The notes below the pieces were generated by a model that saw only the letters and a list, made by a program, of their open reading frames with translations, did no database searches and was not told the DNA's origin. Shown here one piece after another: positions 35,824 through 37,778 of a stretch of DNA of 64,000 bases. Location of the stretch: sequence record PQ287649.1. The stretch is one strand, 5' to 3'. The first letter of the stretch is position 1; the number at the start of each line of letters is the position of its first letter. This DNA is from Pseudomonas phage HHBS47_1. The position numbers were made by a program, and so were the translations under genes.

Positions 35824-37577
35824 TAGATAGTGATGCATGATATAAACTCACTATACAACTCCTATTGTATGCGGAAGTGTTCGCATTCGACCATAAGGAG
35901 TTGTAAAGATGCTAACGTGTTTTGGAAAGAAATACGTGTTGTCTACAACTAACACGGTTTACAATGTCACCGATAAGACAGATGTTCCAGTCCATCGGAT
36001 GACAGACGGGAATACGTTCTTCATCGCACGGGGCGATGGGGACGAACTGGTTAAGATCAAACTGGGGTTAATGATCCTCCATGGAGAAGGAAAGTTCCAT
36101 CTTCCTATCTCTGAATGGGAACAGGTGAAAGTAGGTTTTCTGGATGACGATACAGGAAACTTTGCAGCGGATAACCTTTACTTGGTCTATCCTGAAGAGG
36201 GTATCCCTTACCCTGAACTTTCCGGGTACTACTACATCCCTGGGTTTGAACTCAACGCGATCAACCGAGATGGTGTGGTATACCGAACACTTAGAAAGAA
36301 TCTTTACCCACCGTATCTGGGTGGTAAGACCGTTCCTAACAGTTTCTACCCCTTTGTTCGACTGGATGTGGTCAGTGGGGATGAACGCAAGTATGTCCAC
36401 CGGTTACTGGCGGAGACCTTCGGTAAACCGCCTAAGGGCTACCCCAAGCTACTGGTCGATCATAATGACGGTAACAAGATGAACTTCAAGCTCTTTAACT
36501 TGATTTGGGTTACCGCTAAGGACAACTCCTTCAAAGCGTACAACAATCAAGAAGCGAGAGCGGACAATAATCCCCTGGAGGTTTTTGACAGGGAATTAGG
36601 TCAAGTCTTTAAGTACGTCAGTCAAAATGAGTTTGCTAGAACCATGGAGGTGGATTCTTGGTGCATTGGTCTGGTGCTCAAACGTCCTCGCTCGGTGTAC
36701 AAGAACAGGTACGTTCTTCGTCGGAAGGGAGATACACGTGACTTCCAAGAGATCTGGGACTATAAGCCCCCTGTGGGTAAGAAGATCCTTGCCCGGAATG
36801 TCTTCACCGGTGAAATCACGGTGTATAATTCATTGGCGGAGGCCTCTAGAGCAACACAGGTAGGGACAACAGGCATCCTGACGTCCCTGAGTAACACCAA
36901 CCCGAGATCCGCCTTTAAAGACCTTCAATTCAAGCGGGAGTCTGACGAGACCCCTTGGCCCGATTTGAATGAATACGAACTGGAATGCATCCGGCGCAAG
37001 ATGCACCCTGCTACAGCTGTGTATGAAATGTTTGATTCGGTAACCCAGGAGACGTCGATTGTGTATGGCGTTGATGCAGTTACCCGAATCACCGGAGCCA
37101 ATCCCCGTACCGTTATCGTTTGCGCACGAGAAGGTAAGTTGCTCCATTCCCGTTATCGTTTCAAGAAACTTACACGTTAACGAGTTTATATCCATCACTT
37201 AGTCCGGCTAGGCACGAAAGTCCTAGACCGTATTCCTCTGAATTGCTGGGAGTTCACAAAAGTCTGTTGGCTACAACGTAACTGGAAACAGTAAGCGTGA
37301 ATGCGACCGAAAGGTAGAAAGAACAACAGACCTGACCTACGCTAACCAATACGGCTAAGGGTCGTAAACAAGGGACAATCAGCCGCTAAGACGCTACCGG
37401 GTATTAGACCCTATGCGTAAAGTTCAACGACTAAGGGAGTTATGACCCTGTACACCTACCAAGGAAGGGGGTGGAAGTGGAGGTGACCTAAGGGGGAATA
37501 GACCTATTCCCTACGGTCAAGATATAGTCTGGCCCTGTTTAATAAACAGGCAGGCACCTGAGCGTGCCGGGTCCTAG
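35824..37577 (+). mobile_element. group I intron (IA-like core) carrying an HNH homing-endonuclease ORF; proposed to interrupt the beta'-like gene
   Basis: Core elements in order: P2 hairpin GGCTAGGcacgaaagtCCTAGACC (37205), P-like GAATTGCTGGGA (37241), Q-like AATCAGCCGCTAAG (37377), R-like GTTCAACGACTAAGGG (37422), S-like AAGATATAGTCT (37519), P9 hairpin GGCACctgagcGTGCC. Boundaries parallel the second intron: exon ends gaT|TAG..., intron ends ...CCTAG|. The 5' splice site is an inference. Confidence 0.45.
35909..37180 (+). CDS. HNH homing endonuclease (423 aa) with two NUMOD1-like helix-turn-helix repeats
   Basis: HNH core VHRLLAETFGKPPKGYPKLLVDHNDGNKMNFKLFNLIWVTAKDN. DNA-binding repeats VYNSLAEASRATQVGTTGILTSLS and VYEMFDSVTQETSIVYGVDAVTRI. 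AAGGAG RBS. Confidence 0.8.
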   Translation: MLTCFGKKYVLSTTNTVYNVTDKTDVPVHRMTDGNTFFIARGDGDELVKIKLGLMILHGEGKFHLPISEWEQVKVGFLDDDTGNFAADNLYLVYPEEGIPYPELSGYYYIPGFELNAINRDGVVYRTLRKNLYPPYLGGKTVPNSFYPFVRLDVVSGDERKYVHRLLAETFGKPPKGYPKLLVDHNDGNKMNFKLFNLIWVTAKDNSFKAYNNQEARADNNPLEVFDRELGQVFKYVSQNEFARTMEVDSWCIGLVLKRPRSVYKNRYVLRRKGDTRDFQEIWDYKPPVGKKILARNVFTGEITVYNSLAEASRATQVGTTGILTSLSNTNPRSAFKDLQFKRESDETPWPDLNEYELECIRRKMHPATAVYEMFDSVTQETSIVYGVDAVTRITGANPRTVIVCAREGKLLHSRYRFKKLTR

Positions 37578-37778
37578 TATGGACTGACCACCGCGGGCGA
37601 TCAATTGTCGAGCCATTCTGTTGTAGCGGAAGACAGCAAACAACAGGCCTACGAACTCTTTGGGAAACGGGAGTATTACATCAGTGGTACGGGTCGGTTT
37701 TTGTACGATCCGATCAATGAACCGATTCTCTTTATGTTTAAAGCAGCGACAAGCGGCTTAGAGGATATTGAGGTATGA
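37578..37778 (+). CDS. proposed exon 2 of the beta'-like gene (66 codons)
   Basis: Reading frame opens exactly at the predicted 3' splice site (in-frame TAG 37575-37577 just upstream) and ends with TGA overlapping the ATG of the beta-like gene (gtATGAgc). Encodes YGLTTAGDQLSSHSVVAEDSKQQAYELFGKREYYISGTGRFLYDPINEPILFMFKAATSGLEDIEV. Confidence 0.35.
   Translation, partial: YGLTTAGDQLSSHSVVAEDSKQQAYELFGKREYYISGTGRFLYDPINEPILFMFKAATSGLEDIEV

Follow-up and report, generated by a model that had tools for sequence, protein, structure and literature searches.

This report concerns a probable mobile group I intron in the virion RNA polymerase (RNAP) genes of Pseudomonas phage HHBS47_1 (sequence record PQ287649.1), of which a stretch of 64,000 nucleotides (nt), referred to here as the window, was analyzed. 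Four open reading frames (ORFs) in this stretch match products of Pseudomonas phage EL: gp184 (34381-35826), gp185 (35909-37180), gp186 (37775-40978) and gp187 (41433-42509). The segment from 34381 to 37778 is 98% identical to EL (NC_007623, 193364-196761) and to six other EL-like genomes. The ORF for gp184, the N-terminal (N) subunit of beta', has 481 amino acids (aa) and ends in gaT/TAG (here and below, a slash in a sequence marks a proposed splice site). The 1067-aa ORF of the beta gene starts at 37775, within an ATGA at 37775-37778. An original prediction, made from the letters of the DNA alone, had listed the first three of these ORFs, the elements of a ribozyme core, the ATGA overlap and the gaT/TAG arrangement, all of which we find where it placed them. 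It proposed that the beta' gene is interrupted by a group I intron of ~1.75 kb that holds an HNH endonuclease gene. We consider it very probable that 35824-37595 is indeed a mobile group I intron with an HNH gene inside the virion RNAP beta' N gene, and that its exons are joined at 35823/37596.

The position of this junction is best judged from the host protein. A tblastn search with the spliced protein of the original prediction returned 308 phage records, with more than 280 jumbo-phage homologs of exon 1 among the matches, and in most intron-less jumbo phages (e.g. BUCTxx100, pTD1 and OBP, the last with a homolog annotated as virion-associated RNAP beta') residues 1 to ~542 occur in one piece. 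Related beta' N fragments align through exon 2, but they do so without the six residues YGLTTA with which the exon 2 of the prediction began; the alignment reads ...LLDSDHD-YGLTTA-GDQLSS for EL against ...LLGGDFD------GDQLNS. When 35823 is joined to 37596 (...GACCACCGCG/GGCGATCAA), the gap is gone. In a large protein collection, the closest intron-less homologs (72-77% identity, 538-541 aa) all contain ...SVDPSREAGLDSDHDGDQLNSNSV...; they are ungapped at this place (...SREAGLDSDHDGDQLNSNS..., motif DSDHDGDQL), as are distant homologs (...LLGGDFDGDQLNSN..., GGDFDGDQL). The DNA of a compost-metagenome contig reads GAC TCC GAC CAC GAC GGT GAC CAG CTC at the junction. Because the intron-less homologs are ungapped at DSDHD/GDQL, we place the junction at 35823/37596 and assign 60 codons to exon 2. 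The notion of a short second exon whose stop overlaps the beta start thus holds, whereas its length of 66 codons does not. The mature beta' N protein is most likely encoded by 34381-35823 plus 37596-37775, for a total of 541 aa.

This protein has the hallmark of the catalytic loop of multisubunit RNAP beta' chains (double-psi beta-barrel, NADFDGD type), in the form DSDHDGD. Exon 1 closes with GAC AGT GAC CAT GAT (DSDHD), and exon 2 contributes Gly482 and the third catalytic residue, Asp483. The intron therefore appears to split the Mg-binding loop between its second Asp and the Gly-Asp pair, and splicing would rebuild DxDGD. None of D479, D481, G482 and D483 varies in an alignment of seven members of the family. 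A profile of this family matches the beta' N-subunit of the AR9 non-virion RNAP (7S01_d, 4.3e-13), with the loop aligned to DYDGD, and it also matches bacterial beta' chains. The profile was required for this result, as a Protein Data Bank (PDB) search with the spliced protein as a single sequence gave no match; Pfam returned no match for either exon or for the beta ORFs. Among four EL-like genomes, exon 1 has accumulated 56 synonymous and 7 non-synonymous changes, and exon 2 has 5 and none.

The 3' end of the intron deserves particular attention, given that the original prediction had put it at CCTAG/37577. The following 18 nt (37578-37595), which would encode YGLTTA, comprise the 3' half of a terminal hairpin and a 10-nt tail. 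In our fold, the hairpin is GGUCC-uaguau-GGACU (37570-37585), and the tail, GACCACCGCG (37586-37595), ends in the omega-G, G37595; ligation after this residue restores the frame without a gap (DSDHDGDQL). Across the four EL-like genomes compared, this is the most variable stretch, with changes at 4 of its 18 sites that would be mostly non-synonymous if coding (Fisher p 0.007-0.04). In L017, a metagenome contig from an uncultured EL-clade phage, the same six “codons” read YELAKT, and the adjoining exon residues are conserved. The hairpin also covaries, with GGCUC/GAGCU in L017, GGUGC/GCACU in Vibrio phage 2 TSL-2019, GGUGU/ACACC in FishSpeaker and GGUAUCA/UGAUACU in phiKZ, and in all four a tail of 10-11 nt follows. 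Every homologous intron whose ends are independently fixed has this hairpin-plus-tail architecture. All of this suggests that the YGLTTA stretch belongs to the intron and not to the exon; the intron-less homologs give 37595/37596, so the end at 37577 was wrong by 18 nt.

A second, ORF-less intron in the beta gene leads to the same view. The original prediction had correctly recognized it as a relative (RF00028 match at 40941-41345, 39.3 bits in E-value mode) and had taken its end, GGATAG/41372, as a parallel to CCTAG/37577. The phages GXNNE2 and GXNNA8, which are 97% identical, lack this intron, and alignment with the GXNNE2 allele sets its ends at 40976-41390. Spliced beta reads HDD/VKRAVF and is identical to the protein of the intron-less allele. 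The intron's 3' end thus lies 18 nt past the in-frame TAG, after a hairpin (CGGAUA-gga-UAUCCG) and a 10-nt tail (UGAAGAAACG/), and the proposed parallel fails because of this displacement. With the ends so fixed, EL gp186 and gp187 would be one gene of ~1,439 codons. The insertion point, after “DD”, is also occupied by the intron of PhiPA3 gp210.

The downstream part of the beta' intron has the features of a conserved group I catalytic core. At the gathering score, Rfam reports no family in the window; cmscan in E-value mode finds a match of RF00028 (Intron_gpI) to 37177-37549 over the full model (46.2 bits, E 1.4e-9). This match, together with the homologous introns, agrees with the original identification of a group I intron, which we measure at 1,772 nt. 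Introns of relatives score 51-92 bits (63.9 for L017), and the beta' intron itself exceeds the gathering score of 50 in reference EL (51.1 bits) but not in MIZ-Pa99 (48.4) or GXNNE2 (46.7). The core includes helices P3 to P8, and its P, Q, R and S elements are located at 37240, 37377, 37422 and 37519. P7 (GACUA/UAGUC) is invariant in seven introns. In RNAalifold analyses, changes on both sides of a pair were found for 42 of 102 pairs (five introns) and 34 of 66 pairs (seven introns), both sets being small samples of related sequences; the compensated pairs lie in P2, P4, P5, P6, P7.1, P7.2, P8 and P9.1. The EL helices were taken from segment folds because MAFFT column mapping mis-registers P3, P4/P5 and P9. 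Hairpins such as P7.1 and P7.2, which lie here between P7 and the 3' strand of P3, are typical of subgroup IA phage introns.

We place the 5' splice site directly after U35823, which forms a U-G wobble with G37202 of a predicted internal guide sequence. Contiguous scans for a guide complementary to the end of exon 1 gave weak or misplaced candidates only (e.g. GUUAUG at 37439 and GUUGU at 35900). Comparison with the ORF-less beta intron (GAU/UGAG ... CUCAGUC) revealed the conserved AUCACU(C/U)AGUCC just past the HNH stop, and its AGUC(C) motif is conserved at the guide position of related introns. In the resulting P1, AGUGAUG (35829-35835) pairs with CAUCACU and 35821-35825 pair with UAGUC. 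The extension of this helix is kept with different sequences in other introns: it is CGGAUGUAAUUUAG/CUAAAUUACAUCCG in L017 (14 bp, -22.6 kcal/mol, across that intron's own 423-aa HNH ORF), GUGUG/CACAU in VP4B, GUACAU/AUGUAU in FishSpeaker and GAAUUAGU/ACUAAUUC in TSL-2019, and by our reading of printed sequences it also covaries in phiKZ. P1 thus appears to be a long-range pairing with a guide 1.37 kb downstream, so that the whole HNH gene would lie within the P1 loop. The original prediction had favored the splice site after U35823, which the gapless splice and this pairing bear out; it had put the gene in an expanded P1/P2 loop, and the covarying helix narrows this expanded 5' loop to that of P1.

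The gene in this loop does encode an HNH endonuclease of 423 aa, as had been proposed: residues 161-207 match Pfam HNH_3 (4.7e-11), and phmmer relates its HNH region to I-HmuI (1U3E, E 1e-3). It is intact in all seven EL-like genomes, with constraint weaker than that on the exons (31 synonymous and 22 non-synonymous changes in the four genomes). The protein is ~34% identical to intron ORFs of FishSpeaker, TSL-2019/PDCC-1 and a Raoultella phage, and ~25% identical to phiKZ gp179. It is intron-encoded, and related genomes show a presence/absence pattern. The leader is also of note. The segment 35836-35925 folds at -25.2 kcal/mol (z = -3.13), and the 85 nt of intron leader have no variable site in the four genomes, versus 3-4% elsewhere. 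The hairpin that holds the Shine-Dalgarno (SD) sequence may therefore regulate the HNH gene. Further, 12 nt separate the end of the ORF from the guide sequence, and translation of the ORF and formation of P1 thus probably compete on one transcript.

From these features, a mechanism can be sketched. The GAU of the exon and the first intron bases would pair with the guide at 37193-37204 to form P1, with the core from P2 to P9.2 following the ORF. By standard group I chemistry, a guanosine would attack after U35823, and the freed exon would then attack after omega-G37595. The ligated mRNA would be translated into a 541-aa protein, to which exon 1 contributes D479 and D481, and exon 2 adds G482 and D483. 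The HNH protein, I-HmuI-like and probably a nickase, may cut intron-less alleles in co-infecting relatives, resulting in homing or marker exclusion as in PhiPA3 gp210; the ribosome-binding site of its gene would be buried in a stable hairpin.

Some facts weigh against an active intron in the beta' gene. The 46.2 bits of the window's copy fall short of the Rfam gathering score of 50. At position 37484 the window has T, whereas EL, MIZ-Pa99 and GXNNE2 share an A; at the end of P3, a U-A pair is thereby replaced by a U-U mismatch, which probably contributes to the difference from the 51.1 bits of EL. The P1 duplex has an energy of -10.9 kcal/mol (RNAduplex), which ~7% of random 26-nt windows equal, and a duplex-energy scan of the upstream 2.8 kb finds better partners for the guide than the P1 strand; for these reasons, the energy is not used alone as evidence. 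No convincing complementarity of the kind that P10 requires was seen when exon 2 (GGCGAU...) was compared with the bases 5' of G37202. Many group I introns have a weak P10 or can dispense with it, and we therefore do not take its absence to exclude membership. Splicing in EL is something that we infer from sequence, and in phiKZ, which has homologous predicted introns, ONT-cappable-seq detected no splicing of these under the conditions of that study (PMC10914365).

If the transcript is not spliced at all, the element would be a decayed intron or a free-standing HNH gene, flanked by a 481-aa gp184 and a protein of ~57 aa that starts at TTG 37605. The protein database entry for beta' N is the 481-aa form (P0001), and public annotations treat gp184 and, in two genomes, the small ORF as separate genes. 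Such an arrangement would fit the phiKZ long-read RNA data (PMC10914365), and jumbo-phage RNAP genes are naturally split elsewhere (PMC7598289). However, it would cut the DxDGD loop between the second Asp and Gly-Asp, and inspection of the sequence shows no Shine-Dalgarno element before TTG 37605. Further, the ribozyme core is intact and kept by compensatory changes, its homologs include introns that score above threshold, and splicing yields a gapless frame to the nucleotide from two sites that obey the U and omega-G rules. We thus regard the absence of splicing as improbable. The exact boundaries of the original prediction, with an end at 37577 and a 66-codon exon 2 that starts YGLTTAGDQ, are more doubtful still. 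G37577 could serve as omega-G, a frame opens right there after an in-frame TAG, and the first two bases of this exon 2 (UA) could pair with UA of the guide as a minimal P10. Yet in the product, six extra residues would separate the second catalytic Asp from the third, an insert found in no homolog; G37577 sits in the loop of the covarying terminal hairpin; the six codons differ in L017 and vary among EL-like genomes, as described above; and for the beta intron, the GXNNE2 allele that lacks it shows the corresponding prediction to be false. The least probable reading, to which we give hardly any credence, is a short intron of ~37187-37595 with a local P1 hairpin after the HNH stop, the HNH gene being upstream exon sequence. 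It derives from the cmscan alignment, which puts the model's P1 on 37181-37207. By our count, 4 of the 9 pairs of that hairpin are non-standard, and a 5' splice site past the HNH stop would not link any coding sequence, so that exons 1 and 2 would stay apart. The same 3' strand, moreover, pairs with the exon 1 boundary in all relatives, and the 14-bp helix of L017 spans its ORF. The 1,772-nt intron predicts the ligated sequence ...GACCATGAT/GGCGATCAA..., with a ligated-exon target of CTCGACAGTGACCATGATGGCGATCAATTGTCG and a junction tryptic peptide of EALLDSDHDGDQLSSHSVVAEDSK; the 66-codon version instead predicts ...GACCATGAT/TATGGACTG... and the peptide EALLDSDHDYGLTTAGDQLSSHSVVAEDSK. A natural intron-less site, in L014, reads GACTCCGACCACGACGGTGACCAGCTC.

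Table 1. Features of the beta' N gene and its predicted intron in the window, with the 3' tails of homologous introns (a slash separates tail and exon 2).
Feature	Coordinates	Strand	Details
Exon 1, beta' N-terminal subunit gene (EL gp184, phiKZ gp180 homolog)	34381..35823	+	codons 1-481; 98% identical to EL gp184
Group I intron, 1,772 nt	35824..37595	+	U35823 is the last exon base; end at omega-G37595; from gapless spliced product, RF00028, homologous introns
P1, 5' strand	35821..35835	+	exon GAU 35821-35823, intron UA 35824-35825, 3-nt bulge, AGUGAUG 35829-35835
SD hairpin	35853..35906	+	HNH Shine-Dalgarno AAGGAG (35895) paired with CAACUCCU (35856)
Intron HNH homing endonuclease gene (EL gp185), putatively in P1 loop	35909..37180	+	423 codons + TAA; Pfam HNH_3
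Internal guide sequence, P1 3' strand	37193..37204	+	CAUCACU (37193-37199) + UAGUC (37200-37204)
Catalytic core	37206..37531	+	Rfam alignment, segment folds, RNAalifold
P2	37206-37229	+	core helix
P3	37235-37240 with 37478-37483	+	core helix
P4-P6 domain, extended P5 region	37243-37418	+	core helices
P7	37429-37433 with 37525-37529	+	core helix
P7.1/P7.2 hairpins, between P7 and P3'	37434-37473	+	core helices
P8	37485-37518	+	core helix
3' peripheral elements	37534..37595	+	P9 37534-37550, P9.1 37553-37568, terminal hairpin 37570-37585, tail 37586-37595; segment fold
Exon 2	37596..37778	+	60 codons (GDQLSSHSVVAEDSK...EDIEV) + TGA; gapless vs intron-less homologs
ATGA overlap, beta' N-fragment stop / beta gene (EL gp186) start	37775..37778	+	sequence
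VP4B 3' tail/exon 2 start			GGACAAUAAG/CAA; ends by DNA comparison with intron-less congener pTD1
FishSpeaker 3' tail/exon 2 start			GGACAAAGAG/CAA; ends by exon homology
TSL-2019 3' tail/exon 2 start			GAACAUAUCCG/UAU; ends by exon homology
phiKZ 3' tail/exon 2 start			GAACAUAACG/UUC; ends by exon homology
L016 (metagenome, EL clade) 3' tail/exon 2 start			GGACAAUAAG/CAG; ends by exon homology
L017 (metagenome, EL clade) 3' tail/exon 2 start			GGCCAAAACG/GGU; ends by exon homology

The overlap of the beta' N stop with the beta start has counterparts in the intron-less relatives BUCTxx100, pTD1 and OBP, in which the two codons likewise overlap or abut. Upstream of exon 1, on the minus strand, lies a gene for a giant tail lysin like phiKZ gp181. 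Farther downstream, we observed a perfect 127-nt tandem duplication (44019-44145 and 44146-44272, within 44019-44272 of the window) that frameshifts the homolog of EL gp190, a virion structural protein, into overlapping ORFs (43595-44149 and 44058-45272). The unit is single-copy in GXNNE2, and deleting one copy from the window restores an ORF of 516 aa. The duplication could be a real mutation or an assembly artefact.

Introns homologous to that of the beta' gene are scattered among relatives. Those of L017, FishSpeaker and TSL-2019 carry an ORF, those of VP4B and L016 do not, and close relatives are also found intron-less. L016 and L017, both metagenome contigs from uncultured EL-clade phages, have 74-76% protein identity and introns of the same lineage; the intron of L017, with its HNH gene of 423 aa, occupies the EL site, and that of L016, which has no ORF, lies one Asp codon further on. 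As other close relatives are intron-less, the element appears to be polymorphic within the clade. Overall, the insertion sites follow the first catalytic Asp in phiKZ and TSL-2019, the second in EL and L017, and the third in VP4B, FishSpeaker and L016. A site like that of VP4B was considered for EL and rejected, given that exon 1 ends with DSDHD and that CAA is not preceded by a G. At all three GAU/ sites, the guide has the same 3-nt exon-binding sequence (GUC), and the exon part of P1 is the Asp codon GAU only; the type of 3' tail differs by insertion site, with one sub-lineage at each. These facts raise the possibility, which we advance tentatively and hold to be somewhat less likely than its negation, that one HNH-carrying group I intron lineage has moved among three adjacent positions within the 15-nt stretch that encodes DFDGD. 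If true, this would be a natural series in which a ribozyme with a minimal, 3-nt exon-binding sequence and its endonuclease were retargeted by 6-nt steps inside an active site.

Intervening sequences in this region are also found in further phages. Photobacterium phage PDCC-1 (NC_048821, 2179-3899) has a hybrid beta' intron, with a 5' half of the Asp1 type and a 3' half of the Asp3 type. Its 5' part and 416-aa endonuclease gene are 100% identical to TSL-2019 over ~1.3 kb, versus exons that share only 82-91% identity. From P2 onward the intron is like that of VP4B, its last exon base is C rather than U, and it scores 38.7 bits with Rfam. It may be a recombination product of two such introns. 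We could not reconcile it with a functional beta': with the parental splice sites, the junction is LGGD/QLNSNG, and the YDGD catalytic codons appear to be missing. In Aeromonas phage ACP1 (~2944-3201), and also in phage CF8, an intervening sequence of ~258 nt follows DFDG (GGT/ATT ... CATTTG/GAC); that of ACP1 has no Rfam group I match at E <= 0.01.

An intron feature is absent from every public EL-like annotation that we inspected, although in two of them small “hypothetical” ORFs are called in the gap, and we found no explicit description of an EL beta' intron in the literature searched. The inspected EL-like records give the virion RNAP beta' N-subunit as 481 aa, which stops inside the catalytic loop. 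Our analysis would thus correct the gene model of an essential enzyme to one of 541 aa, in which an exon missing from the annotations provides the third catalytic Asp. It would also add a second intron-endonuclease pair to the virion RNAP operon of the Elvirus group. The EL beta' intron appears to be an unannotated example of an otherwise well-known kind of phage mobile element. In PhiPA3, an element of this kind has been shown to serve as a weapon against jumbo phages that infect the same cell, and the presence of one here is therefore relevant to competition among phages and to how phage cocktails are designed. Further, the series of introns at three neighboring Asp codons is convenient for studies of target-site change in group I introns and homing endonucleases.

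Among known systems, gp180/gp179 of phiKZ is arranged like the EL locus, in the order tail lysin, beta' N, HNH ORF, ribozyme core, short exon 2 and beta. The phiKZ intron is homologous to that of EL (Rfam, 92.2 bits); the two share the AGUC guide, and in phiKZ, too, a 10-nt tail (GAACAUAACG/) comes after a terminal hairpin. It differs in its position, after the first Asp (GAD/FDGD) and 6 nt upstream of the EL site (DSDHD/GD), and in its core, which is shorter and without the large P5 extension. Its exon 2 has 63 codons (FDGDTVSFNAV...KQRD) and is followed by gp178. In the phiKZ record (NC_004629), gp180 ends ...LGAD with no exon 2 feature; its beta' is truncated like that of EL. phiKZ gp179 was predicted to be intron-associated in 2002, and gp180 has been cited as intron-containing (PMC10914365, PMC11512511).

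PhiPA3, a nucleus-forming jumbo phage, provides the tested mechanism. Its gp210 is an HNH nickase encoded in a group I intron of the virion RNAP beta gene, inserted after “DD”; it nicks the intron-less allele of co-infecting phage and damages phiKZ (PMC11620839, Birkholz et al. 2024). Both this intron and that of EL are HNH-type group I introns placed at catalytic or conserved Asp codons of a virion RNAP gene in a Pseudomonas jumbo phage. The PhiPA3 intron, however, is in the beta gene, at the site of the window's ORF-less intron (40976-41390) and not at the EL beta' site. By analogy, the EL HNH protein would be expected to cut intron-less DNA.

HNH endonucleases are also found in group I introns of other phages, such as I-HmuI in the DNA polymerase intron of SPO1/SP82 and I-BasI in Bastille. 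I-HmuI and I-BasI are nicking enzymes with C-terminal DNA-binding modules, and in SPO1-type phages, introns occupy positions that are close together but not identical within one conserved segment of the gene. The host gene in SPO1/SP82 is that of DNA polymerase, whereas in EL it is that of RNAP beta'; further, the SPO1/SP82 intron ORF lies in a loop other than P1, unlike the putative P1-loop location in EL. Finally, the pairing of the Shine-Dalgarno sequence at 35895 with 35856 in EL resembles the T4 td intron, in which a hairpin sequesters the ribosome-binding site of I-TevI. That enzyme belongs to the GIY-YIG type and has its ORF in P6a, in contrast to the HNH gene that the P1 loop of EL would hold, but a similar regulatory role for the EL hairpin seems plausible.

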